This document shows positions 7,041-63,984 of a DNA stretch of 64,000 nt, in pieces. The notes beneath the pieces are model-generated. The model did no database searches, had not been told where the DNA came from, and saw nothing but the letters and a program-made list of their open reading frames with translations. A program made the position numbers and the translations under genes. This DNA comes from Minisyncoccota bacterium (lineage in GTDB: Bacteria; Patescibacteriota; Minisyncoccia; Phycocordibacterales; SBAW01): positions 1 to 64,000 of the forward strand of contig DASZWM010000002.1 in NCBI GenBank assembly GCA_035546615.1. The letters run 5' to 3'. Positions within the stretch are counted from its first letter, which is position 1; each line of letters starts with the position of its first letter.

Positions 7041-9191
7041 TTATACCGTCTCTTTTGCGGGCCACGCCTCGACCATCAACAAGTCTTTCGTATTCGGCAT
7101 GGAAGACCAGATCTCCTCGGTTACGAACGGCATGAACGGATGCATGCCTTTCAGCAGCACTTCTAGCGCCTGCAGCAAAGCGGCCGCGCGGGATTTCGCG
7201 CGCGCAGCGTCGGGGCCTTTCAAAAGCGGCTTGCTCTCCTCCAGTATGGCGTCCGCAAAGCGGTGCCATATGAATTGGTACATTGTATCGGCTGCCAGGT
7301 CGAGCCGGAACGAGTCTATGTGCGTTGCCGCCTCTTGCGCGGCCCCGCGCGCTTCCTCCACGATCGCCTCGTCCTCAGGCGCGAGGGTAGCATCCGAGTC
7401 CGCTCCGGCTGCCTGCCCGCTTTCAAGGACGAAGCGTGCAATATTCCATATCTTGTTTGCAAAATTCTTATACCCGCGTATGCGGTCTTCCGACAGCTTC
7501 AGGTCGTTGCCGGGAGCGGCGCCGACGATAAGCGAAAGGCGCACGGCGTCGGCGCCGTATTTCTCTATCATGTCCAGCGGGTCGATGATATTGCCGAGGC
7601 TCTTGCTCATCTTGCGGCCTTTCTCGTCGCGCACGAGGCCGTGCAGGTACACGCGCTGGAAGGGCACGGTATCAAGCAGGAAGCCGCTCATGAGTATCAT
7701 GCGCGCGACCCAGAAGAAGAGGATGTCGTAGCCGGTTTCGAGAACCGAAGTAGGATGATAGGTCCTCATGTCAGCCGTCTCCTCGGGCCAGCCGAGCGTG
7801 GAGAACGTCCAGAGGCCCGAAGAGAACCAGGTGTCGAGCGTATCGGAGTCCTGCTCCCAGCCCTCGCCGGGGGATTCCGCGCTGATGCGAATTTCCTCGC
7901 CCTTGTACCAGGCGGGGACGCGGTGGCCGAACCATATCTGCCTTGAGATGCACCAGTCGCGCAGGTTGTCTATCCAATGGTAATAGATCTTCTCGAAGTG
8001 GTCGGGGGTGATAGTGATGTTCTTGCTTTCAACCGCCTTGCGCATAATCTCCTTGAGCGTCGTCTGCTTGCTGTCGCGTTCGAACTCCTTGTTCACGGCG
8101 ACGAACCACTGCTTCATTATCTGCGGCTCGATGACCGCCTCGGTGCGCTCGGCCGTGGCGACATTATGCACGTAGTCCTCATCCACTTTGACGAGCAGGC
8201 CCTTTTCGCGCATTTTCTCGACTATTTTCTCGCGCGCTTCGGCTATCTTGAGCCCCGCGAACTCGCCCGCGATAGGGAGCAGCTTGCCGTACTTGTCGAT
8301 GACCTGCTCCTTGTTGAGCTTGTGGCGCTCGGCTATCTCGAAGTCGATGCCGCTGTGCCAGGGCGTTATCGTCATGACGCCGGTGCCGAACTCCGGATTC
8401 GCCGCCGCGTCTTTGATGACGGTGGCGGTAATGGGTCCGTTTATCCATTCCACTTCCAGCGTATCGCCGTGCTTATACTGCGCATAGCGCGCGTCATCCG
8501 GATGCATCACCACATACTTGTCGCCGAACTTCGTCTCCGGCCGCGCGGTGCCGATGGTGAAGGGGCCGTAGGTGAAGTAGTAGAATTTCGATTTTTCCTC
8601 CCGATATACTATTTCGTCGTCCGAAATCACCGTCTGGCCCTTCGGGTCCCAGTTCACGATGCGCTCGCCCTGGTAGATGAGCCCGGCCTTATGCATGCGG
8701 ATGAACGCCTCGTTCACCGCGCGGCGGCGGGAATCGTCGAGCGTATAGGCCTCGCGGCTCCAGTCTACCGATGCGCCCATGCGGCGCACCTGGTTCACAA
8801 TGGTGTCGTGGCTGGCCTGCGCGAACTCCTCGACGCGCTTGAGGAAGGTTTCGCGGCCGAGGTCATGGCGGTTCACGCCTTCTTTCTTCTGGATCTCCTT
8901 TTCGACCTTTGACTGCGTGGCTATTGCCGCATGGTCGGTACCGGGAACCCACAGGGTCTTAAGCCCGCGCATGCGCGCGAAGCGCACGAGGATATCCTCA
9001 ACCGCGAGCATCGCGGCGTGGCCCAGGTGGAGCGTGCCGGTGACGTTGGGCGGGGGAAGGACAATGGAAAATGACTCCGTGCGCTCGCCGGGAAGATTGT
9101 CCGGGTTGAAATAGCCGGAATCCTCCCACTTTTTGTAGATGTCCGTCTCGACCGCCTTGTGGTCGTATGGCTTGAGGAATTTGCTGTCCAT
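7041..9191 (-). CDS. valS: Valine--tRNA ligase (compact form lacking the C-terminal coiled coil)
   Basis: Class I HIGH motif (PPNVTGTLHLGHA), KMSKS motif (KMSKSLGN), and the WCISRQ and DTLDTWFSS motifs typical of ValRS. Length 716 aa. Confidence 0.85.
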   Translation of the reverse strand: MDSKFLKPYDHKAVETDIYKKWEDSGYFNPDNLPGERTESFSIVLPPPNVTGTLHLGHAAMLAVEDILVRFARMRGLKTLWVPGTDHAAIATQSKVEKEIQKKEGVNRHDLGRETFLKRVEEFAQASHDTIVNQVRRMGASVDWSREAYTLDDSRRRAVNEAFIRMHKAGLIYQGERIVNWDPKGQTVISDDEIVYREEKSKFYYFTYGPFTIGTARPETKFGDKYVVMHPDDARYAQYKHGDTLEVEWINGPITATVIKDAAANPEFGTGVMTITPWHSGIDFEIAERHKLNKEQVIDKYGKLLPIAGEFAGLKIAEAREKIVEKMREKGLLVKVDEDYVHNVATAERTEAVIEPQIMKQWFVAVNKEFERDSKQTTLKEIMRKAVESKNITITPDHFEKIYYHWIDNLRDWCISRQIWFGHRVPAWYKGEEIRISAESPGEGWEQDSDTLDTWFSSGLWTFSTLGWPEETADMRTYHPTSVLETGYDILFFWVARMILMSGFLLDTVPFQRVYLHGLVRDEKGRKMSKSLGNIIDPLDMIEKYGADAVRLSLIVGAAPGNDLKLSEDRIRGYKNFANKIWNIARFVLESGQAAGADSDATLAPEDEAIVEEARGAAQEAATHIDSFRLDLAADTMYQFIWHRFADAILEESKPLLKGPDAARAKSRAAALLQALEVLLKGMHPFMPFVTEEIWSSMPNTKDLLMVEAWPAKETV

Positions 9192-28211: not shown

Positions 28212-28805
28212 ATGGATACTACCACTCAGGCGTATCTTGAAATTCTGGAGAAAACAAATCAGCAATTAAGTCTTTGGTATAACCCATATGGTCTAATGGT
28301 GGCAGTATTGACTGGCCTAGTAGCGGCACTTGCAATTGTTTTTGCTTTTATTTTATGGAGACAGCAGAAAGAATATAAAGATGCTTTTAAAGATTTTCTC
28401 GCTGAACGTAAAAAGTTCGCCAATAGTGAGATAGCAAAGGCAATAGTAGAAGCCGGAAAAGTGCTTGACGATAAAATTATAGAAGCGGACAAACAACTCA
28501 AAGATATAAAAGACTCAAGTAGCAAAACAAAAAAAGACATTGAGAAGGAAATTCAAGAACTCAAAAAGTCCAGAGAATCTTTGCAGTCAGGTAGTGCGAT
28601 TTTTCGTAGTGGAGGTGTGAGCGGCCCAATATATGGCACCGCTGCGAGTTCTATTTTGGGAGTAGCTTCTGGCGCGAATAGTACAACCGTTTGGGATCCA
28701 ACTTCTAGTGTATTTAGTGCTGTTGGTAAAATATGTGGTTTTTGTGGAACTCAGAATTATCCTGGCGCACAATTCTGTTTCTCTTGTGGGAACCCCCTTG
28801 GATAA
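28212..28805 (+). CDS. Membrane-anchored protein with C-terminal zinc ribbon
   Basis: One TM helix, a K/E-rich coiled coil, and a C-terminal CGFCGTQNYPGAQFCFSCG double-CxxC motif. About 38% GC versus about 60% in flanking gyrA. Confidence 0.5.
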   Translation: MDTTTQAYLEILEKTNQQLSLWYNPYGLMVAVLTGLVAALAIVFAFILWRQQKEYKDAFKDFLAERKKFANSEIAKAIVEAGKVLDDKIIEADKQLKDIKDSSSKTKKDIEKEIQELKKSRESLQSGSAIFRSGGVSGPIYGTAASSILGVASGANSTTVWDPTSSVFSAVGKICGFCGTQNYPGAQFCFSCGNPLG

Positions 28806-28842
28806 AAAGTTCTTGTCTTCCTAGAAAGAATCTAATCACTAT

Positions 28843-29817
28843 ATGAAAATAAAGATTGAAGAATTGCGGCAATTAATGGTTAAAATTCTTGCGGGCAAGT
28901 ATTACTCGCAGGAGGAGGCAGAAAAGATTGCCGAAGTTTTTCTTTATGCTGAATTGTCCGGTAAAAATACACAAGGAGTTCTTAAACTTCTTGGTTCTGA
29001 GCCGGCTCAAAATATACAGCCCAAGTATCTTCCTAAGATTATAAAAGAGACAAAAGTATCTGCGCTTGTAGACGGAGGCGGAGCGGCCGGACCTTTGGCA
29101 GCTCAATTTGCACTAGATAAGGCGATTTCATTGGCTAAAGAGACTGGAGTAGGAATTGTGGGTTTAAACAATACTTTTTCTAGCGTAGGAGTTATGGGAT
29201 TTTATGCTCGCAAGATGGCCCAAGCAAATCTGATAAGTATTGTGAGTGCAAGTTCACCCAGAGCAATTGTTCCTGCGGGAGGTATTGAGCCAGCTTTTGG
29301 CACAAACCCCATAGCATTTGGTTTCCCTACAGAAGAATATCCAATCGTTTTTGATATGGCGTCTTCGGCTATCACTTGGTATGGGCTTGTTCGTGCAAAA
29401 GCCCTTGGTCAAAAGCTACCCGAAAATGTCGCGATTGATAAAGAAGGAAACATAACAACTGATCCTGAGGCGGCAATGGCTGGAGCTATTTTACCTTTTG
29501 ATCGCTCTTACAAAGGTTCTGGGCTGGCTATGGTCGTTGAACTCTTAGCGGGAGCTTTTACAGGTGCATCGGTTGTATTTGACGAAGGTGACTGGGGAAC
29601 TTCCTTTATTGCCTTTAGTCCCGATCTTGTTATTGGCACTGAGCAATTCAAGAAAAAGTCCTCAGAGCTGGTAAAGAAAGTAAAAGCAGGCAAAACCAAA
29701 GCAGGAGAGAGCATACATATCGCCGGTTATGACAGCGAGGCAAAGCTAAAAGAGATCAATGATTCAGGAGAGATAGAGATTGAAGATAAAATTCTCGATC
29801 AACTAAAGACTTTGTAA
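28843..29817 (+). CDS. Malate/L-lactate dehydrogenase family 2 (Ldh_2) oxidoreductase
   Basis: Collinear with the Ldh_2 family (sulfolactate/ureidoglycolate dehydrogenase-like), for example GVLKLLGSEP...GGGAAGPLA...GFPTEEYPIVFDMASSA. Low GC. Confidence 0.65.
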   Translation: MKIKIEELRQLMVKILAGKYYSQEEAEKIAEVFLYAELSGKNTQGVLKLLGSEPAQNIQPKYLPKIIKETKVSALVDGGGAAGPLAAQFALDKAISLAKETGVGIVGLNNTFSSVGVMGFYARKMAQANLISIVSASSPRAIVPAGGIEPAFGTNPIAFGFPTEEYPIVFDMASSAITWYGLVRAKALGQKLPENVAIDKEGNITTDPEAAMAGAILPFDRSYKGSGLAMVVELLAGAFTGASVVFDEGDWGTSFIAFSPDLVIGTEQFKKKSSELVKKVKAGKTKAGESIHIAGYDSEAKLKEINDSGEIEIEDKILDQLKTL

Positions 29818-29824
29818 TAAGAAT

Positions 29825-30364
29825 ATGAAATTTGGGAACTTGAAATTTGCGCCTGCCATTGAACACCCAGAACTTTTGGCTGCTCCTGTTGCTAGTGCAC
29901 TTACGAGTTTGTCCATCGCTGATGTTGGTGTCGCAGAAATCGACCCAGCTCTCTCCGACACCGCAGCATTTTGCGAGAAGTACGCCGTTGTGCCTGCCCA
30001 GGCTGCTAATTGTGTAGTGCTTAAGTACAAAAAAGGCGAAGAGTCGGCCTTTGTCGCATGCGTGATTTTGGCAACCACTCGTGCTGATGTGAACGGCCTG
30101 GTGCGCAAGGTACTCGACATCAAAAAGATTTCTTTTGCGCCCATGGAGGAAGCCGTGGCAGGAAGCTCGATGGAATTTGGAGCAATAACTCCTATCGGTT
30201 TACCAGCTAATTGGCCAATTTTAATAGACAAAGCCGTTGTCGATTCTCCTGGGGTTATAATCGGGAGCGGAATTCGCAAATCTAAATTAGGTTTACCGGG
30301 CAGAGTTCTTGCTTCACTGCCGAACATACAAATACTTGAAGGGCTAGGTCAGGTAAAGACATAA
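29825..30364 (+). CDS. YbaK/ProX-type aminoacyl-tRNA deacylase domain protein
   Basis: About 180 aa with the YbaK-like pattern (ANCVVLKYKK...FVACVILATTRADVN...GAITPIGLP). Confidence 0.55.
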   Translation: MKFGNLKFAPAIEHPELLAAPVASALTSLSIADVGVAEIDPALSDTAAFCEKYAVVPAQAANCVVLKYKKGEESAFVACVILATTRADVNGLVRKVLDIKKISFAPMEEAVAGSSMEFGAITPIGLPANWPILIDKAVVDSPGVIIGSGIRKSKLGLPGRVLASLPNIQILEGLGQVKT

Positions 30365-55248: not shown

Positions 55249-57468
55249 TTATTCCGCTTTTTTCTTTGCAAAGCCTCTGCGCTTCTTTTCTTCGCTCAGT
55301 ATCTCAAGCGCGCGATCGAGCGTAATCGCATATACGTCATCGGTTTTGAGTGAGCGGAAGTCGGGTTTGGGCTTCGTATTGTGGGCGATATAGGGACCAA
55401 AACGGCCGATGTTTGCAGTAATGGTCTCCTCGGTATCGGGGTGTACACCGAGCACGCGTGGGAGGCTCAAATACTTAAGAGCATCTTCAAGCGTAACTTC
55501 TTCGGGCACTTTTTCTTTGGGGATGGAGCCGCGCTTGGGCTTGTTCTTGGACTTCGAGCCCTTGCCGGTCGGCGTTTCGCCCACCTGCACGTACGGGCCG
55601 AATCGTCCGGTCAGCACGTAAATGGGCTCGCCGGTCTCCGGATAATTGCCGATGGGCTTGGGCGGCTCGTTTGAAATAACTTCGCCGGTCTCCGTGCGCG
55701 CGCCGAGGCAGTCGGGGAAGCGCGAGCAGGACATGAACTTGCCCTGGCGCGAGAGCTTGAACACCATGGGGCTGCCGCAGAGGGGGCATTTGAACTCTTC
55801 CGGCGCGGGACCGAGATCGGTAATCTTACCGGCCTCCTTATCCTTCAATTTAACGTCCTTAAGGAACGGGGTGTAGAAATCGCCGAGGGTCTTGGCATAT
55901 TCGCGCTTGCCCTGCGCGATGTCGTCGAGCTCGTCTTCCATCTCGGCGGTAAAGGTATCTGAAATATAGTTGGCGAAGTTATCCTCGAGGAAGCTCGATA
56001 CCACGTCGCCGGTGTCGGTGGGCATAAGCGTGCGGCCTTCCTTCAATACGTAGCCGCGGTCCTGGAGCGTCTTCATGATGCTCGCGTACGTGGACGGGCG
56101 GCCGATGCCGCGCTTCTCAAGCTCCTTTATGAGGCCGGCCTCGGTATAGCGGTTGGGCGGAGTGGTAGCCTTTTCCTCGGCCGACACGTCCTTAACGTCG
56201 AGCACTTCCTTGGCCGATACTTTCGGCAGTTCCACATCCTCGCCGCGGGCCGCAGGGTCGGCCTTGAGCCAGCCGTCGAATACGACGCGCGAGCCGTTGG
56301 CCGCAAATTGGGGGATCTTGGCGTTCTTGGTCTCGGCTACGACTTTCGTCTTGAGGAGCTTTGCATCCGCCATCTGGGAGGCGATTGTGCGCGCCCAGAT
56401 AAGCTCGTAGAGCTTTTTCTGGTCCGGGGTCGTGCCGACCGACTCCTTTTCTATGTGGGTGGGACGCACCGCCTCGTGGGCTTCCTGCGCGTTCTTGGAC
56501 TTGGCGGCGAAGGTATGCGCCTCGACATAGTTCTTGCCGTACTTCTTTTCGGCGTGGGCAAGTATGGAGGCGCGCGCCGGAGCGCCGAGGTTGGTCGAGT
56601 CGGTGCGCATGTAGGTGATATGCCCGGCTTCATACAGCTTCTGCGCGATGCGCATAGTATTGGAAGGGGAATACCCGAGGCGCGTCGAAGCCGCCTGCTG
56701 GAGGGTGGAAGTGGTGAACGGCGCCCGGGGTGCGCGCTTCATTTCGCTTTCGGTCACGTCCAAGACGGTAAGCCCGTCCTTTTTGACGGCCTCTAGTATC
56801 TTGTCAGCCTCGTCCTTCTTGCGCGGCTCCTCGACGCAGGTAAGCATCAGGTCATCCTTTGCCTCGGTCTTCGTCGCCGCAGTTATTACATAAAACGTTT
56901 CGGGTACGAAGGCGCGTATCTCGCGCTCGCGCTCCATGATGATGCGCAAGGCGGGGCTCTGCACGCGTCCGGCCGAAAGCCCGTAGCGCACTTTCTTCCA
57001 AATGAGGCCGGAGAGGTCGTAGCCCACGAGGCGGTCGAGCACGCGGCGGGCCTCCTGGGCGAAGCGGAGGTTCTGGTCTATCTGGCGCGGATTCGCGAGC
57101 GCCTCGGCAATGGCTTCCTTGGTAATTTCGTGGAATACGATGCGCTCGGGCTTTTTGAGCTTAAGCTCCTGGCCGATGTGCCAGGCGATAGCCTCGCCCT
57201 CGCGGTCGGGGTCGGTCGCGAGTATGACCTCGTCGGCCTTCTTGGCGAGATGCGCCAGCTCGTCGATGACCTTGGCCTTGCCGGGCACGACCTCGTAGTG
57301 GGGGACGAAGCCCGCCGGAATGTCGATGGCTTTCTTATTGGACTTCGGCAGGTCGCGCACGTGGCCCACGGATGCCCGCACGACGAAATCGCCTTTCTTG
57401 TCTATTTCGGAAAGGTACTTCTCAATAGTTTTCGCCTTGGCGGGCGACTCGACGATGACCAGTTTCAT
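55249..57468 (-). CDS. topA: DNA topoisomerase I
   Basis: Toprim start MKLVIVESPAKAKTI, active-site Tyr region, and C-terminal zinc-ribbon CxxC pairs (CPLCGSPM...CSRFPDC). Confidence 0.9.
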   Translation of the reverse strand: MKLVIVESPAKAKTIEKYLSEIDKKGDFVVRASVGHVRDLPKSNKKAIDIPAGFVPHYEVVPGKAKVIDELAHLAKKADEVILATDPDREGEAIAWHIGQELKLKKPERIVFHEITKEAIAEALANPRQIDQNLRFAQEARRVLDRLVGYDLSGLIWKKVRYGLSAGRVQSPALRIIMEREREIRAFVPETFYVITAATKTEAKDDLMLTCVEEPRKKDEADKILEAVKKDGLTVLDVTESEMKRAPRAPFTTSTLQQAASTRLGYSPSNTMRIAQKLYEAGHITYMRTDSTNLGAPARASILAHAEKKYGKNYVEAHTFAAKSKNAQEAHEAVRPTHIEKESVGTTPDQKKLYELIWARTIASQMADAKLLKTKVVAETKNAKIPQFAANGSRVVFDGWLKADPAARGEDVELPKVSAKEVLDVKDVSAEEKATTPPNRYTEAGLIKELEKRGIGRPSTYASIMKTLQDRGYVLKEGRTLMPTDTGDVVSSFLEDNFANYISDTFTAEMEDELDDIAQGKREYAKTLGDFYTPFLKDVKLKDKEAGKITDLGPAPEEFKCPLCGSPMVFKLSRQGKFMSCSRFPDCLGARTETGEVISNEPPKPIGNYPETGEPIYVLTGRFGPYVQVGETPTGKGSKSKNKPKRGSIPKEKVPEEVTLEDALKYLSLPRVLGVHPDTEETITANIGRFGPYIAHNTKPKPDFRSLKTDDVYAITLDRALEILSEEKKRRGFAKKKAE

Positions 57469-57506: not shown

Positions 57507-60500
57507 TTACCCTTTTTCCACTTCGCTTGGCAAGCGCCCCGGCCAGCGGTACACGAGCGTCGGAATGAGAATGAGCGTCAGTATCATCGCGAAGGAAAGC
57601 CCGAAAAGAATGGCGAACGCCAGCGGCCCCCACAGGGCGGACGCGAAGGTGAGCGGTATCATGCCGATCACCGTGGTGATGGTCGTGAGGACGATGGGGC
57701 GCAGGCGCGAGGTCGCCGCCTCGACCACGATGTCGGAGAATGTGCGGCCCGCTCCCGCGTGGAGGCGCTGGAGTATGGAGTCCATGAGGATGATGGCGTG
57801 GTTGATAATGACGCCCGCGAGCGCAATGACGCCCAGAAGCGAGGAGAACGAGAGCGTCTGGCCGGTCAGCACCAGGCCGCCGAACACGCCGATGAGAGAA
57901 AGCGGGATAATGGCGAGCAGATACGTGGTGTAGCGGAATGAGTTGAAGGCAAGCACGAGAATGACGAACATAAGCGCCATGCCCGCCAACAGCGCGATAC
58001 CCATCTCGGCGAAGGACTGATTGGTCTCTTCGTTCTCGCCGCCGATAGATACCGTGACGCCCACGGGAAGCTCGACGCTCTTCATCTTCTCGTTGTACGC
58101 GGCAAGCACCGCTCCGGCGGTGTAGCCCGGCAGCGTATTGGCCGACAAGGTTACTATGCGCTCCCGGTCCTCGTGGTTGATTGTCGAGTCGTTGCGCGCC
58201 ACGCTTTCCTCAAGGAGCGAGCCGAGCAGTATCGTAGTCCCGCTCTGGGTGGTGATAGGCACCTGATGAAGCGCGTCTATGGTGGCGTTTGAGGCGTCAT
58301 GCGGGTCAATGTAGGACGGGTTTAGATTGAGAAGCACGTTTATGTCCACGTCGCGCTCGGCGCCCGAAATGGACGTTGCCTTCATGCCCGACACCGCGGT
58401 GCGCAGGGTAGAGGCCACTTGCGCGGCCGTCACGCCCGCCTGCGCGAGCCGCGAGCGGTCGATGCGAAGCTCGAACTGAACGGTCTCGTTCTTGTTTGAA
58501 GCGTCGACGCTGGTGGCGCCGGGTGTCGACTCGAGCACGCCGCGCGCGGCCGCCACCGCCGCATCCAGCGCGTCGCGGTCGGAGCCGAGGAACTTAATAA
58601 GTACGGGCGCGCCCACGGGCGGGCCGCCGGTCGGCTGGTCGGACGTTACCTTGGCGCTCCGGATGCCGGAAAGCTCTTTCCGGACTTGGCTCAGCACTTC
58701 GGTGCTGGTCTTCGAGCGGCCTTTCGGCAAATTGATGGTGAGGCTCGCAAATCGCGGATCGGACTGGGGATTGCCGCTGAATTCGCTGGTGCGGCCGACG
58801 GTCGTCACGAAGGACGCGATGTCGTGGTCGTTGTACAGCACTTCCTCCACCTGGCGCGCGACCAGATCGCTCTGATTGAGCGACGAGCCCGGCGGAAGCT
58901 CAATATCGGTATATAAAAAGTCTATGTCATCCTGCGGGAAAAAGCTCACGGGAAGCAGTCCCGCGATGGGCAGGGCGAGGGCCAGAACGAACGCGAGCGC
59001 CATGCCCCACAGGAAGCGGTTCTGGTTCTTCTTGTGATGCAGGAAGCTTTTCAGCTTCGCGGAGTACCAGGTACGCGCCGCCTCGGCGTACTCTTCCTGC
59101 TTGTCCAAGAGCCAGCCGCGCGCGCCTATCTTCTGCGAGAACATCATGGTGAGCGTCGGCACCAGCCCCAGCGCCACGAAAATGGAGGCGATGAGCACGA
59201 ATATGAGCGTGTACGGGATGCCGGCGATGAATTTGCCCACGATGCCCGAAATAAAGAAGAGCGGGAAGAACACCGCGACGGTCGTCATCGTGCCGCCGAT
59301 GAGCGGCCAAGCGTACTCGCGGAGGGCCTCGAAGGCAGCCACTTTTTTGTCGCCGAACGTGCGTATGCGGGTGTGTATGGCTTCGACGACGACGATGCCG
59401 GAGTCCACGAGGATGCCGATGGCGAGAATGAGCGAGAAGAGGGAAATAAAGTTGAGCGTGTTGCCGGTGTAGAGGAGCCCGACGAACGCGATAAGGAACG
59501 AAAGGGGAATGGAAAGGCCCGCGACTATCGCCTCGCGCCAGCCGATGGTCGCAAAGAGCACGAGCATCACGAGCACGACGGTCTCAAGCCCCGTGCGGGT
59601 AAGCTCGGTCAGGTCCTGCTGCACCTCGTCGCCGGCGTCCAGCGACACCACGACCTGGCTGCCGTCCAGAAGCCCTGCCTTGAGCGTATCAAGCCTTGCC
59701 TTCACCGCGCGGGTCACAGCGGTCACGTCCTGTCCGCGCACTTTGTATACCAAAAGGGTCATGGCCTGCTCGGAGGGCGCGCCCGCAACCGAGATGCGCG
59801 AGTAGGAGGTCGCCTTCTCGACGCCGTCGGACACGTCGGCGATATCGCGCACGTAGATGACCTGCCCGCCGACGTTCAGTATCGCCACCGAGCCGATGTC
59901 CTCGGTCGTATCGAAGCTGCCGTCGAAGGCGATATTGTAGTTGATGTCATTGACCTCGATGGAGCCCACCGGAAGCGACGAGTTCGCAGCGCCTATGGCC
60001 GCCACGACCTGGGGGAGCGAAATGCCGTAGCGCGCGAGGTCCTCCTTGCGCACGACGACGTCTATCTCGCGGTTGCGCACACCGGAGATGTCTACGCGCT
60101 GGACTCCCTTCACGGCCTGGAGCTCGTTCTGTACCTGATCGGCCAGTTCCGCCAGCTGGGCGAAGGGCTCGTTGGCGGAAATGGAGATTATCTGTATAGG
60201 CTGGTCGACGAAGTTCACGTCAGATACCGTCGGGTCCTTCGCTTCCGCCGGGAGGTCCACTTTCGCCTTATCGACCTCGTCCTTGAGCTTCTGGATGGAC
60301 TTGTCGAGGTCGGCCGACGCGAGGAACTGCACGGTCACGACCGAGATGCCGTCGCGCGATGTCGAGGTGAGCGTGTCGAGGTTCTCGATGTTGGCCAGAT
60401 GCTCTTCAAGCTTGTTAGTGACCAGGCGCTCGACGTCCTCGGCCGATGCGCCCGGAAGCACGGTCGATACGATGCCCACCGGGATGGATACTTCCGGCGC

Positions 60501-60611
60501 CGACTCCTTGGTGATGCGTACGGCCGCGAAGACGCCCGATATCGTGACCGCCGCGATGACGAGCAGGGTGAACTGGCGCTTTTCTATGAAGAATTTCCAG
60601 AATGACAGCAT
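57507..60611 (-). CDS. RND-family efflux transporter permease (AcrB/CzcA-like)
   Basis: 1034 aa and 12 TM. Two large periplasmic loops. N-terminus collinear with AcrB (FIxRPxxxxVIAxxIxxxG...P...YP). Forms an operon with the upstream MFP gene. Confidence 0.85.
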   Translation of the reverse strand: MLSFWKFFIEKRQFTLLVIAAVTISGVFAAVRITKESAPEVSIPVGIVSTVLPGASAEDVERLVTNKLEEHLANIENLDTLTSTSRDGISVVTVQFLASADLDKSIQKLKDEVDKAKVDLPAEAKDPTVSDVNFVDQPIQIISISANEPFAQLAELADQVQNELQAVKGVQRVDISGVRNREIDVVVRKEDLARYGISLPQVVAAIGAANSSLPVGSIEVNDINYNIAFDGSFDTTEDIGSVAILNVGGQVIYVRDIADVSDGVEKATSYSRISVAGAPSEQAMTLLVYKVRGQDVTAVTRAVKARLDTLKAGLLDGSQVVVSLDAGDEVQQDLTELTRTGLETVVLVMLVLFATIGWREAIVAGLSIPLSFLIAFVGLLYTGNTLNFISLFSLILAIGILVDSGIVVVEAIHTRIRTFGDKKVAAFEALREYAWPLIGGTMTTVAVFFPLFFISGIVGKFIAGIPYTLIFVLIASIFVALGLVPTLTMMFSQKIGARGWLLDKQEEYAEAARTWYSAKLKSFLHHKKNQNRFLWGMALAFVLALALPIAGLLPVSFFPQDDIDFLYTDIELPPGSSLNQSDLVARQVEEVLYNDHDIASFVTTVGRTSEFSGNPQSDPRFASLTINLPKGRSKTSTEVLSQVRKELSGIRSAKVTSDQPTGGPPVGAPVLIKFLGSDRDALDAAVAAARGVLESTPGATSVDASNKNETVQFELRIDRSRLAQAGVTAAQVASTLRTAVSGMKATSISGAERDVDINVLLNLNPSYIDPHDASNATIDALHQVPITTQSGTTILLGSLLEESVARNDSTINHEDRERIVTLSANTLPGYTAGAVLAAYNEKMKSVELPVGVTVSIGGENEETNQSFAEMGIALLAGMALMFVILVLAFNSFRYTTYLLAIIPLSLIGVFGGLVLTGQTLSFSSLLGVIALAGVIINHAIILMDSILQRLHAGAGRTFSDIVVEAATSRLRPIVLTTITTVIGMIPLTFASALWGPLAFAILFGLSFAMILTLILIPTLVYRWPGRLPSEVEKG

Positions 60612-60628: not shown

Positions 60629-62158
60629 TTACTGCGCTACTTCTACCGTTTCCCTCGCGCGCAGGCCCCGGGCGTCCGTGACTATCAGCATGTCGGGAGT
60701 GGCGCCGTCGAGTATGACCACGCGGTCGCCGAGCAGCTCGCCTATCGTTACTGTATGCGCCACGAGCATATTGTTCGCGTCCACCGTAAAGACGCTCATG
60801 CCGCCCTGGCCAATCTTAAGCGCCGCAAGGGGAATGACGAGGCGCGCGGGAGCGGCGGCCGTGGCGGCGTTTTGCGCGCGGGCAAGCTCGACCGTGACCG
60901 ACTGGCCGTTGATGAGAGCGGTCGCGGAGCCGCTGATGCCGACGCGCACCTCTATTTTCTTGGTGACGGGGTCAATGGCGGGCGCGATGCGGGTTATGAC
61001 GCCGTCTGCCGAGCCGCCGAGCTTCGCCTTGCCGCCTACCGCAAGCTGGCGGGCGTCGGATTCGGTGACATAGGCTACCACTTCAAGCGCGCCGTTGTTG
61101 GCTACCGTAAGGACCGCGGAGCCGAGCTGGACGTAGTCGCCGCGCTTCAGCGACAGGGAATTGATAGTGCCGGAAATGGGGGCGCGGATGAGCGTATGCT
61201 CAAGGTTGGCGCGCGCGGAGGCGAGGCCCGCCTGGGCCTGCTTTACCGCCGCGGCGCTGACCGAGGCGTTTGCGCCGGTGCCCGCGATGCTCTGGCGGGC
61301 GCTGCCGAGCGCGGTTATGGAGGCGGTCACGGCCGTGCGCGCCGCGATAGTGGCAGCCTTATAGCCGTCCAGCACCGATGCGGTCACGACCTCGTCGGGC
61401 TCGCCGGCGTTAAGCGCGCGCAGGAGGGCATCGAGGAAGTTGCGCACCTGCTGGAGCTCGGCTTCGGTTTGAGCAAGCTCGCCGCTTTGGTCTGAGGCGG
61501 AAGAGATCTGCGCCGATGCGGCCTTCTGCCTGTCGAGCGCGGCATCGAGCGCGCTGCGCAGGCTTTCGGCCTCGCGTTTGGAGGCGGAATCTTCCGTCTT
61601 TACGCGCAGGTAATACGTGTGCGGCGTGGTATCCGGATTGATGAACATAGGGTCCGCCGCGTTGTGCACCGCGTTGTCTGCCGCCGCGTAGGCGGAGAGG
61701 AGCGCGCTTGCGGCGCTGGTGCCTGAAATGCCGGCGGAGGCCTGCGCCGCCTCGACGCCGGCCTGCGCCTGGAGCACCGCCGCGCGCTCGGACGCGTTCT
61801 CGACTTCCGCTACCACCGCGCCCGCGCCGACGTAGTCGCCGAGCTGGTAGTTGAGCGAGGTAATCTCGCCGGATTTCTCCGCGCGCACGGTAGCCTCGGA
61901 CTTGGAGCTCACGGTGCCCGCTACCGAAAGCCCGGAGGTCTGGTTGGAAAGGTCGGCGATGGAGCGCAGCTCAACGCTGCGGGTATTGTTCGGCGCCGCC
62001 GCTTCGGAAGCGCCGCCTGAGAACGCCGCGTGGAGGACGATAAGCAGGACGACCAGAACGCCCGCCCCCGCGGCGAGTTTTTTCCAGCCCAGACGCTTGG
62101 CTGTACGGGTCAGATACGAAACGAAGTCCTGGAGGCGCGCGAAAATAGATTGCAACAT
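60629..62158 (-). CDS. Efflux RND periplasmic adaptor (membrane fusion protein, HlyD-like)
   Basis: N-terminal TM, a long Ala-rich coiled-coil hairpin, and lipoyl/beta-barrel segments (GELAQTEAELQQV...KRGDYVQLGSAVL). Confidence 0.7.
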   Translation of the reverse strand: MLQSIFARLQDFVSYLTRTAKRLGWKKLAAGAGVLVVLLIVLHAAFSGGASEAAAPNNTRSVELRSIADLSNQTSGLSVAGTVSSKSEATVRAEKSGEITSLNYQLGDYVGAGAVVAEVENASERAAVLQAQAGVEAAQASAGISGTSAASALLSAYAAADNAVHNAADPMFINPDTTPHTYYLRVKTEDSASKREAESLRSALDAALDRQKAASAQISSASDQSGELAQTEAELQQVRNFLDALLRALNAGEPDEVVTASVLDGYKAATIAARTAVTASITALGSARQSIAGTGANASVSAAAVKQAQAGLASARANLEHTLIRAPISGTINSLSLKRGDYVQLGSAVLTVANNGALEVVAYVTESDARQLAVGGKAKLGGSADGVITRIAPAIDPVTKKIEVRVGISGSATALINGQSVTVELARAQNAATAAAPARLVIPLAALKIGQGGMSVFTVDANNMLVAHTVTIGELLGDRVVILDGATPDMLIVTDARGLRARETVEVAQ

Positions 62159-62167
62159 ATGAAAATA

Positions 62168-62419
62168 TTATCTGTTCTTCTTAATAATACCCTGAATGAC
62201 GTTGAGCCGCTTGGACAGGTGGGTGGCGAACTTCTCGACGCCCGATAGCTTCGCGAAGGTCACCATCTCGCCGCCCATGCCGAACACAAGCAGTTTCTGG
62301 CCCTTCTTGAGGCCCATCGCCTCGCGGGCGTCCGCGGGAATGACTATCTGGCCCTTTTCGCCCAAGGTCGTGATGCCGTATATCTTCTCCGCGGGGTGGT
62401 GAGCATGGTTCTTAAGCAT
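62168..62419 (-). CDS. AbrB/MazE/SpoVT-family DNA-binding protein
   Basis: 83 aa. The swapped-hairpin motif KGQIVIPADAREAMGLKKGQKLLV is typical of AbrB/MazE. Confidence 0.6.
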   Translation of the reverse strand: MLKNHAHHPAEKIYGITTLGEKGQIVIPADAREAMGLKKGQKLLVFGMGGEMVTFAKLSGVEKFATHLSKRLNVIQGIIKKNR

Positions 62420-62542
62420 AGTATGAAATGTATTACTTTTCCTACACTGTACCGCAGGAAGGCCGTGCGGTCAATGAAGGCTTACGTGGCGTAAAAAATG
62501 CCCCGCGCGACTATGAGTCGCGCGGGGTGATGTTGTCTGGGC

Positions 62543-63070
62543 CTAGTAGGCCCCATACTGCGGATTGACCGGCGTTGCGGCCTGCCGTCCATAATGCGCG
62601 TGATAGAGGCAATACTGATTCCTTTTTCCTCCCGTATCCGCGCCGCAGTACAGCGCGGGGCTCGTTTCCGTCTGGTCGCGCACGATAGTGTGACACATCC
62701 CTTCCTCAACCTGCAGGAGCGTCACGTTGATGCTCTTCGGTTGCGGGATTTCCATGACGGCACGGGGCAGCGCAGCCTGCCGCGCGGCTTCCGGATGCAG
62801 CTTGGGCGGCTCGCGCCTTGCTTTTATCCGTAACCGCATGAGCGCGGCATTGTTTGTTGAGCCTGTTCGCGGTTTGCGCGGCCGGGCCTGGCTGGGTGCG
62901 GGCTTCGGCCGTCCGGAAAGGTTGAGACGGTGGATTTTTCCAATGACGGCATTCGCCGTAACTCCGCCCAGCTGGGCGGCTATCTGGCTTTTGGAAAATC
63001 CCTCGCTCCAGAGCTTTTTGAGCAATTCAATGCGCTCGTCCGTCCAGCCATGATTCTTGGTAGAACCCAT
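62543..63070 (-). CDS. GcrA-family cell-cycle regulator-like protein
   Basis: N-terminus WTDERIELLKKLWSEGFSKSQIAAQLGGVTANAVIGKIHRLNLSGR is nearly identical in pattern to the GcrA DNA-binding domain. The C-terminal MCHTIV...YCGADT...YCLYHAHY matches the GcrA CxW...FCG...YCxxH module. Confidence 0.65.
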   Translation of the reverse strand: MGSTKNHGWTDERIELLKKLWSEGFSKSQIAAQLGGVTANAVIGKIHRLNLSGRPKPAPSQARPRKPRTGSTNNAALMRLRIKARREPPKLHPEAARQAALPRAVMEIPQPKSINVTLLQVEEGMCHTIVRDQTETSPALYCGADTGGKRNQYCLYHAHYGRQAATPVNPQYGAY

Positions 63071-63123
63071 AGGCTTTTACTCCTTGTACTGATAGTGGAA
63101 CAAATGTCCTGTCCTTACTATAA

Positions 63124-63984
63124 CTATGTCCGTACTATCTTGCCAAGACGCTCTTCTACGAGCCCGCGGATCTGCAGCGATGAAAGCGCGATGTTCGCTT
63201 CCTGAGCGGAAAGCCCCGCGCGCTCAATAAGCTCGTCTTTTTCGAGTGCTTCGGCCAATGCCTCGAGTATTTTCGCTTCGGCAGGCGTCAGATCGGACGG
63301 GAAGGAGGCTTCCGCAGCATCTTCGACTTTCAGTCCGAGCGCTTCAAGAATATCTTCGCTGTTGCGAACGAGCGTTGCGCCTTCGCGAATCAGCCGGTTG
63401 ACGCCCGCGCCGCTCTCGCGCCCCAGCTCGTGCGGCACGGCGAGCACTTCGCGGTTGTAGTCAAGCGCGAGCCGCGCGGTAATAAGCGTGCCGGACTTTT
63501 CTCCCGCTTCTATTATGAGCGTGGCAAGCGCCATGCCGGCCCCGATGCGGTTTCGCTTGGCGAAATCGAACAGCTGGGGCCGGTAGGGGCCGGGATTCTC
63601 GCTTACGAGCGCGCCGCCCTTCTCAAGTATCCGCTGCGCCAGCCCGCGGTTGCTTGCGGGATATATAGAAGAGTCATCGCATGAGGAGGGGAGCACCGCT
63701 ACGGTTGCCAGCCCGGCATCGAGCGCCGCCTTGTGCGCTTCGGCGTCTATGCCTAAAGCGAGGCCCGAGACTATCGCGACCGGATACCGCGCTAGCCCCG
63801 CGATAAGCGCTTGGCACATACGCCTTCCATATATAGACGTAGCGCGCGAGCCCACGACGCACAGGAGCTTGTACTCGGGCGGGGGAAGTTCGCCGCGTAG
63901 GTACAGCATTTTCGGCTTGTCCGGAATTTCCCTCAAAAGGTCGGAAAATCCGTCAGGCGGCAGTTGTCGGATAGGGAAAGCCAT
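63124..63984 (-). CDS. dprA: DNA processing protein DprA (Smf)
   Basis: Rossmann-like core LLCVVGSRATSIYG...VSGLALGIDAEAHKAAL...TVAVLPSS and C-terminal winged-helix tail. 286 aa. Confidence 0.8.
   Translation of the reverse strand: MAFPIRQLPPDGFSDLLREIPDKPKMLYLRGELPPPEYKLLCVVGSRATSIYGRRMCQALIAGLARYPVAIVSGLALGIDAEAHKAALDAGLATVAVLPSSCDDSSIYPASNRGLAQRILEKGGALVSENPGPYRPQLFDFAKRNRIGAGMALATLIIEAGEKSGTLITARLALDYNREVLAVPHELGRESGAGVNRLIREGATLVRNSEDILEALGLKVEDAAEASFPSDLTPAEAKILEALAEALEKDELIERAGLSAQEANIALSSLQIRGLVEERLGKIVRT

Follow-up and report, generated by a model that had tools for sequence, protein, structure and literature searches.

A gene of the GcrA family of transcription factors lies at 62543..63070, on the minus strand, of a 64,000-nucleotide stretch of contig DASZWM010000002.1 (the whole stretch analysed, hereafter the window), directly downstream of dprA and amid genes of the Candidate Phyla Radiation (CPR). 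It was best explained, with a probability of about 0.6, as encoding a domesticated and dispensable two-module regulator of the GcrA type, in which the read-out of DNA has been altered and the sigma-docking surface has been either altered or lost. Outside the Alphaproteobacteria, GcrA is otherwise known mainly from phages. Within that class it is treated as a hallmark of the cell cycle, where the GcrA/CcrM module is conserved (PMC3885167).

The gene begins with ATG and encodes 175 amino acids. Its product matched the GcrA profile PF07750 at 114 bits, against a gathering cutoff of 26.9, and the match ran from position 3 to 147 of the 155 profile positions; both GcrA modules are therefore present. 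A phmmer search of the PDB identified Caulobacter GcrA over residues 8–164 (7ye1_G, E = 8e-24), as well as the entry for its isolated DNA-binding domain (DBD; 5yiu, E = 7e-16). Thus the profile search and the structural matches, together with the aligned zinc ligands described below, bore out the first-pass annotation, which had proposed, from the letters alone, a member of the GcrA family whose DBD is N-terminal and whose Cys/His module is C-terminal. The same protein is present in NCBI as HVV14904.1, 'GcrA family cell cycle regulator [Candidatus Paceibacterota bacterium]', from a contig of 125,660 bp.

Three parts could be delimited, all on the minus strand. The N-terminal, three-helix DBD comprises residues 8–53 (62912..63049), as judged from its modelled fit to 5yiv_A and from alignment to other GcrA DBDs. 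It is followed by a basic, proline-rich linker of residues 54–112 (62735..62911), recognized by its composition (15 lysines and arginines and 11 prolines within residues 52–112) and by a predicted local distance difference test score (pLDDT) below 50 in the AlphaFold2 model, where it is disordered. Residues 113–163 (62582..62734) form the C-terminal CCCH zinc-finger module, which is homologous to the sigma-interacting domain (SID) of GcrA but has a remodelled surface. In the same model the DBD (residues ~8–50) had pLDDT values above 90 and the zinc module (~105–162) values of about 86–90. This architecture is that of Caulobacter crescentus GcrA (5YIV/5YIU, 5YIX, 7YE1/7YE2), which has 173 residues; the linker too is similar in length, that of Caulobacter having ~60 residues (PMC9976885), and the CCCH zinc finger retains all four ligands. 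Among the differences are that the host is a CPR bacterium and that the protein scored only 105.3 bits with NF050816, the NCBIfam equivalog for functional GcrA, for which the cutoff is 280.

The DBD was 74–85% identical to those of alphaproteobacterial GcrA, and its model superimposed on 5yiv_A with a root-mean-square deviation of 0.4 Å (TMt 0.93, 72% identity). Caulobacter residues N34, I37, G38, K39, H41 and R42 are all retained, as N40, I43, G44, K45, H47 and R48. However, of the six residues that contact bases or methyl groups (R33, N34, I37, G38, H41 and R42), one has been lost: the position of R33 is occupied by alanine (Ala39), both in the window protein and in its best homologue, a second CPR protein with 51% identity (P0002). 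In the Caulobacter protein, the G of GANTC receives two hydrogen bonds from R33, which also stacks on the T before it (+3T) and lines methyl pocket 1 as one of its walls (PMC5887438). Among the nearest family representatives, 136 had a motif that could be scored, and 131 of these have arginine at this position, as do all 118 other sequences recovered by the first homology search.

Conservation in the zinc module was of a different kind. The ligands C126, C142, C154 and H157, corresponding to C118, C133, C143 and H146 of Caulobacter, were invariant in the alignment, while their spacing has lengthened from C-X14-C-X9-C-X2-H to C-X15-C-X11-C-X2-H. Identity to alphaproteobacterial SIDs was 27–37%, against 53% to P0002, and the CPR pair share derived motifs within the module (MCH... 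and YCGA.TGGKR.QYC.YHA). Binding of sigma70 domain 2 in two-hybrid assays requires GcrA residues K119, W120, D124, G129, F130, F132, Y142 and Y151 (PMC5887438), which in the window protein read H, T, D, P, A, Y, Y and R. Five of these eight contacts have therefore been replaced (K119H, W120T, G129P, F130A and Y151R); D124 and Y142 are kept and F132Y is conservative. In P0002 the WPIGDP loop has been deleted altogether. The C-terminal basic patch, which in Caulobacter touches the non-template strand of the discriminator (PMC9976885), is gone from the window protein, since the tail beyond the CxxH motif (AHYGRQAATPVNPQYGAY) contains one lysine or arginine, compared with four to seven in alphaproteobacterial sequences. 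When the window protein was compared with P0002 part by part, identity was 80% in the DBD, 53% in the zinc module and 32% in the linker. The combination of low identity to alphaproteobacterial SIDs with 53% identity and derived motifs within the CPR pair suggests, from the alignments, that a new surface has been under selection, more than that the module has simply decayed.

The contig is, by its gene content, that of a CPR organism, from an Adlerbacteria-like lineage of Paceibacterota. The gene order is SerRS, dprA, gcrA, (abrB), MFP, RND, topA, relA, parB, where SerRS denotes seryl-tRNA synthetase and MFP and RND denote the membrane fusion protein and the resistance-nodulation-division transporter of an efflux system. 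The taxonomic marker topA (55249..57468, minus strand), which is the ancestral downstream neighbour of dprA, has CPR homologues; among its best 120 homologues (75–94% identical), the names given were all of Paceibacterota, Parcubacteria, Adlerbacteria or Patescibacteria, with the exception of one NCBI record labelled Acetobacteraceae, which in nr is named as a 'Candidatus P...' taxon. Therefore, of the two explanations offered by the first-pass annotation, an acquired regulator or a hint that the contig is alphaproteobacterial, it was the former that agreed with the evidence.

The junction between dprA and gcrA is real. An independent Logan assembly of run SRR12170516 (locus L001) contained the same SerRS and the same order of dprA, gcrA, abrB and MFP. 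The gene for P0002 occupies an equivalent locus (SerRS, then dprA-gcrA-MFP-RND-topA), which is present in a JGI contig of 209 kb and again in a separate contig from Logan (L002/L003). Such independent assemblies and the synteny between them demonstrate that the arrangement is common to related CPR organisms, and a chimeric or contaminated contig, considered as a candidate, was rejected on these grounds. Identities between the window and the P0002 contig were 92% for TopA, 86% for RND, 76% for DprA and 70% for MFP, compared with 51% for GcrA. Base composition also supports long residence of gcrA in its host, because its GC (0.60) and its GC at third codon positions (GC3; 0.69) match its neighbours (dprA, 0.61; topA, 0.59). 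The immediate upstream neighbour, dprA (63124..63984, minus strand, 286 amino acids), was identified by TIGR00732 (201.8 bits, cutoff 191), by PF02481 and by the DprA_WH winged helix. The first-pass annotation had correctly placed gcrA directly downstream of dprA on the same strand, although the gap between the dprA stop and the gcrA ATG (63071..63123) is 53 nt, rather than 54 nt.

A metagenome scan seeded with DprA provided 80 loci for comparison, among which the common layout was dprA followed directly by topA; close relatives were defined as those with DprA 67–76%, or TopA 86–94%, identical to the window. The slot between these two genes proved to be highly variable. It contained gcrA in the window, in L002/L003 and in L012, where the gene has the canonical motif ITRNAV and the contig stops inside it. 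The slot was empty, with dprA and topA adjacent, in L016, L019, L093 and L098, and was occupied by MFP and RND without gcrA in L014 and L023; in L092, RND and topA were seen but the contig begins within RND. The MFP-RND pair lay between dprA and topA only in some close relatives (the window, L002, L014, L023 and L092). Two loci contained degenerate copies of gcrA: in L094 (7344-7896) a DBD-like segment is split over two frames with an insertion and without a zinc finger, and in L013 (1220-1438) the match is confined to the first ~23 residues, after which the sequence diverges. L020/L021 contained a divergent member of PF07750 (37 bits), which keeps CKWP and the zinc finger but differs from the window GcrA in having a very divergent DBD. 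GcrA was absent from all those loci of the 80-locus set in which DprA was 49% identical or less. Close relatives either lack gcrA or carry it in decayed form, and so the gene is dispensable in this lineage; on comparative sequence evidence, it is old enough to be shared and compositionally native, yet often lost.

Small open reading frames (ORFs) encoding a helix-turn-helix (HTH) protein were also found in the slot, in L018/L022, L020/L021 and L099. These share an N-terminal 'WWKKL' motif (L018:6914-7450, L020:6691-7086 and L099:7383-7898) and occupy the same slot in the same lineage as the window gcrA, but they have no zinc finger, and homology to GcrA is weakly supported. Searching Pfam with hmmscan produced no match for the L018 and L020 proteins, and none is on record for the L099 gene; hhalign of the 'WWKKL' HTH against the GcrA DBD helices gave a probability of 66% (E = 5e-5).

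Sequence features around gcrA predict that it is a self-contained transcription unit, with its own promoter, ribosome-binding site and terminator, all on the minus strand. The promoter is sigma70-like (TTGGCA, an 18-nt spacer, TATAGT; 63117..63146) and matches the consensus at 10 of 12 positions; its -35 element lies within the final codons of dprA and its -10 element right past the dprA stop. In L002 both hexamers and their spacing are kept, while the sequence of the spacer differs. The Shine-Dalgarno sequence AAGGAG (63080..63085), 9 nt upstream of the ATG, is likewise conserved in L002. An intrinsic terminator (62491..62527), comprising a 12-bp stem with 10 G-C pairs, a 3-nt loop and a T run, begins 15 nt past the gcrA stop; in L002 an analogous hairpin and T run follow gcrA, and beyond them lies a consensus promoter that would serve the pump genes. 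No terminator was present between dprA and gcrA, and so read-through from dprA is possible.

The first homology search recovered, apart from P0002, canonical GcrA proteins only, with 37–51% identity; those with names were from Hyphomicrobiales (e.g., Bauldia, Bartonella and Phyllobacterium). One such sequence, P0003, had a cellular context, in that its gene adjoins a class-III aminotransferase, with phoU and genes for a phoB-type response regulator and a pst-type ABC transporter nearby. The CPR gene differs in being flanked by dprA and an efflux operon rather than by the argD/pho context seen at locus L004. In a neighbour-joining tree the window protein and P0002 formed a clade in 199 of 200 bootstraps, nested among cellular alphaproteobacterial GcrAs. 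When 20 viral sequences were added, the CPR pair became sister to a long-branched viral group in 59 of 100 replicates, but by raw distance remained nearest to cellular sequences, and the viral grouping is likely to reflect long-branch attraction. A single acquisition of an alphaproteobacterial-type GcrA is likely. In the comparison with phage homologues proposed by the first-pass annotation, distance thus pointed to a cellular donor and the sister grouping to a viral one; the vehicle may have been either a cell or a phage.

Viral relatives are certainly numerous. GcrA relatives were found on 406 IMG/VR contigs, besides Caulobacter phage, Lactobacillus phage and cyanophage records, and the window protein matched phrog_16311 (E = 2e-16). 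Hence the earlier statement that non-alphaproteobacterial GcrA is mostly phage-borne was right in so far as such genes are common in viruses; it did not apply to the present gene, which has housekeeping flanks. Identity to the window protein was at most 34% over the full length for the phage records and 37–42% for the IMG/VR contigs, compared with 45–51% for the best cellular alphaproteobacterial sequences. Phage GcrA-like proteins (from phiCbK-type Caulobacter phages, IMG/VR and PHROG 16311 and 12262) belong to the same Pfam family and indicate that GcrA modules move between genomes; the viral versions often vary in the CxWP loop and the C-terminal tail. They differ from the CPR protein in being 30–42% identical to it and in keeping arginine at R33, and the CPR gene differs in being chromosomal, in a housekeeping neighbourhood. 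Searching GTDB species-representative genomes with the CPR-specific peptide VTANAVIGK returned seven chance matches, none of them GcrA-like. The family as a whole comprised 13,451 representatives of 50%-identity clusters (E <= 1e-3), which is much larger than usually assumed. It includes three long relatives (P0241, P0243 and P0256; 482–714 amino acids) with four to nine DBD-like stretches each, i.e., tandem DBD arrays.

Taken as a domesticated regulator, the gene would represent a horizontally acquired transcription factor of the GcrA family, retained at a single chromosomal position in this Adlerbacteria-like lineage, and its product would most likely work, like GcrA, as a monomer with two modules. 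The HTH would lie in the major groove, where N40, I43 and G44 would still form the adenine-methyl pockets and R48 would still read G; with alanine in place of R33, the protein would no longer read the G of GANTC directly, and methyl pocket 1 would lack one of its walls. The partner to which the zinc finger would tether the protein is most plausibly RNA polymerase or the housekeeping sigma factor, and the docking surface would be either adapted to the CPR sigma-A or lost; the whole would not constitute a canonical CcrM/GcrA cell-cycle module. Changes to both DNA specificity and docking surface are expected because of the R33A substitution, the replaced sigma70 contacts and the loss of the basic patch. 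Functional constraint on the protein is suggested at the sequence level by the concentration of identity in the domains, the retention of zinc ligands, and the promoter hexamers, Shine-Dalgarno sequence and terminator that are conserved between the window and L002.

Several observations weigh against this interpretation. The DBD of L012 keeps the arginine and, by hand count, is ~83% identical to the alphaproteobacterial consensus, compared with ~70% to the window; this pattern would fit either one acquisition or several. When the L012 fragment was used to look for a full-length CPR GcrA that keeps the arginine, only short, alphaproteobacterial-like fragments (75–92% identity) were returned, without CPR context. 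That the zinc finger has become adapted to CPR sigma-A is conjectural, as rpoD is found neither in the window nor in the close-relative loci but only in distant ones, e.g., L027 (DprA 46% identical); and the missing WPIGDP loop of P0002 would be just as consistent with a loss of sigma binding. Foldseek aligned the C-terminal module of the model to 5yix_B with TMt 0.72 and a probability of 0.90, but with E = 0.44, and the AlphaFold alignment for this module was mostly alphaproteobacterial, such that its likeness to 5yix is not independent evidence. Finally, the divergence of GcrA (51%, against 70–92% for its neighbours), the pseudogene-like copies in relatives and the patchy distribution would also fit a transferred gene in slow decay.

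The last of these points amounts to an explanation in its own right, namely that gcrA has no function, or is almost neutral, and is what is left of a transferred gene in the course of its loss. Its rapid evolution relative to its neighbours, the loss of functionally critical residues, the fragments and frameshifts in L013 and L094 and the absence of the gene from L093, L098, L016 and L019 are all consistent with this. Nevertheless, the ORF is still intact in at least two lineages, although their proteins are by now only 51% identical, and what is conserved lies mainly in the two folded domains and the zinc ligands; the derived zinc-module motifs are common to both CPR proteins, and the promoter, Shine-Dalgarno sequence and terminator are conserved. 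A remnant is consequently rather unlikely, though it is the strongest of the alternatives.

A bolder proposal is that a CPR lineage has re-engineered a domesticated GcrA-type sigma cofactor: the zinc finger would offer a new docking surface to the CPR housekeeping sigma factor, and R33A would relax or shift the read-out of bases. Along with the related small HTH genes of the slot, it would make up a lineage-specific, methylation-sensitive family tied either to DNA uptake and recombination through DprA or to DNA topology through TopA. If true, a GcrA system with a partner and a target logic of its own would for the first time be seen to be inherited vertically outside Alphaproteobacteria; the proposal should be regarded as speculative and improbable.

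The first-pass annotation had introduced GcrA as the factor that reads methylated GANTC. If this held in full here, the protein would be a canonical GcrA that, with a CcrM-like methyltransferase encoded elsewhere, reads N6-methyladenine in GANTC and activates sigma70 promoters as part of an alphaproteobacterial-style cell-cycle module. The highly similar DBD with its six retained residues, and the preserved CCCH finger and linker length, might be expected of such a protein, and GANTC was indeed scarce in the window, with 152 sites where dinucleotide shuffles predicted 270 (0.56). However, other words were depleted to an equal or greater degree (TCNGA, 0.55; CTNAG, 0.41) and the maximal-order Markov ratio for GANTC was 0.95; the deficit was therefore discarded as a sign of a CcrM partner. 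The higher density of GANTC in intergenic than in coding sequence (3.8/kb versus 2.3/kb) was uninformative, given that the spacers are richer in AT. The motif [DNS]PP[YFW] of N6/N4 methyltransferases was absent from every real ORF of the 64-kb window, and so the check on methyltransferase and GANTC statistics that had been proposed produced neither a motif in the window nor a GANTC-specific signal. Together with the alanine at R33, the five changed sigma70-binding residues, the missing basic patch, the low NF050816 score and the absence of the gene from very close relatives, this makes canonical function improbable, and reading of methylated GANTC by the present protein was not supported. Among 4-mer palindromes the most depleted across the window, by the maximal-order Markov estimate, were GATC (0.56) and CTAG (0.47); restriction or methylation pressure may bear on GATC rather than on GANTC.

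It had also been suggested that the protein controls competence or DNA uptake together with DprA; such a regulator of competence or recombination might act on dprA or on DNA-uptake genes, or might sense the methylation of incoming DNA. In favour of such coupling, a GcrA-family or DBD-like gene stands just downstream of dprA in the window, L002/L003, L012, L013, L020/L021 and L094, despite strong divergence, and part of the gcrA promoter lies within the end of dprA with no terminator intervening. Against this, gcrA is served by a conserved promoter and terminator of its own; dprA and topA are an ancestral pair, and the gap between them also accommodates MFP-RND pumps and unrelated ORFs; dprA is kept without gcrA in the close relatives L093, L098, L016 and L019; an HTH gene occupies the slot in L099 while dprA is deleted; and no other competence genes are nearby. 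Although the adjacency is conserved, a specific role with DprA thus rests only on position within a variable slot, and the suggestion was considered as improbable as canonical function. In L099, where TopA is 89% identical to that of the window, dprA has been cut to its first ~21 and last ~25 codons (7203-7335); since only this remnant survives, DprA itself seems dispensable in the lineage.

Least probable of all was that gcrA belongs to a prophage or other mobile element, or to a contaminated or chimeric contig, for although viral relatives, the PHROG match and the viral sister group might be cited in its support, the gene has the same position in different organisms and assemblies, its composition is host-like, its best viral identity is below its best cellular identity, and no phage, integrase or transposase genes occur near it, the flanks being SerRS, dprA, topA, relA and parB.

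Assuming that the gene has been domesticated, its significance lies in the retention of a chromosomal GcrA copy by an ultra-small CPR lineage, with a strongly conserved DBD, a rewritten sigma surface and the loss of one base-reading arginine. If functional, it would be a natural experiment in which a sigma cofactor has been re-fitted to foreign transcription machinery, and a candidate regulator for organisms in which regulation is almost unknown. A literature search combining GcrA with Patescibacteria found no paper, and among the matches listed for GcrA or GANTC with broader CPR terms there was no co-mention. Practical significance is modest, however: cases of regulator transfer into Patescibacteria are already on record (PMC12455944), NCBI already gives the protein the label 'GcrA family', and the family is very large.

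The remaining genes downstream of gcrA are also on the minus strand. An AbrB/MazE-like gene of 83 amino acids (62168..62419; TIGR01439, 40.5 bits, and PF04014) heads the MFP-RND pair and has its own promoter-like site at 62474..62446; it is absent from L002. The MFP gene (60629..62158) was identified by HlyD_3 / HlyD_D23 and is 70% identical to that of L002, while the RND transporter (57507..60611) is 86% identical to its L002 counterpart, which was recognized as ACR_tran. On the other side of dprA, the adjacent SerRS was 81% identical to that of the window lineage in L012 and 67–68% in L013, L024 and L025. In L014–L022 it was only 33–36% identical, although DprA was about 70%, and so there appear to be two types of SerRS among the close relatives.

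Other genes of the window are of the housekeeping type (GyrA, ClpB, a short IF-2, a class I aminoacyl-tRNA synthetase, RelA/SpoT and ParB), and there are 13 tRNAs and no rRNA. A block of low GC was observed at 28212-30364, with GC of 0.44 and GC3 of 0.29–0.43, compared with 0.6–0.8 in neighbouring genes. It encodes a Zn-ribbon/YajC-like protein of 197 amino acids, an Ldh_2 malate/L-lactate dehydrogenase and a YbaK-type tRNA_edit protein, and appears to have entered the CPR chromosome by transfer in recent times. Lastly, 836-2968 encodes a 710-amino-acid protein with three matches to Laminin_G_3 (concanavalin-like), possibly with a role at the surface or in adhesion.

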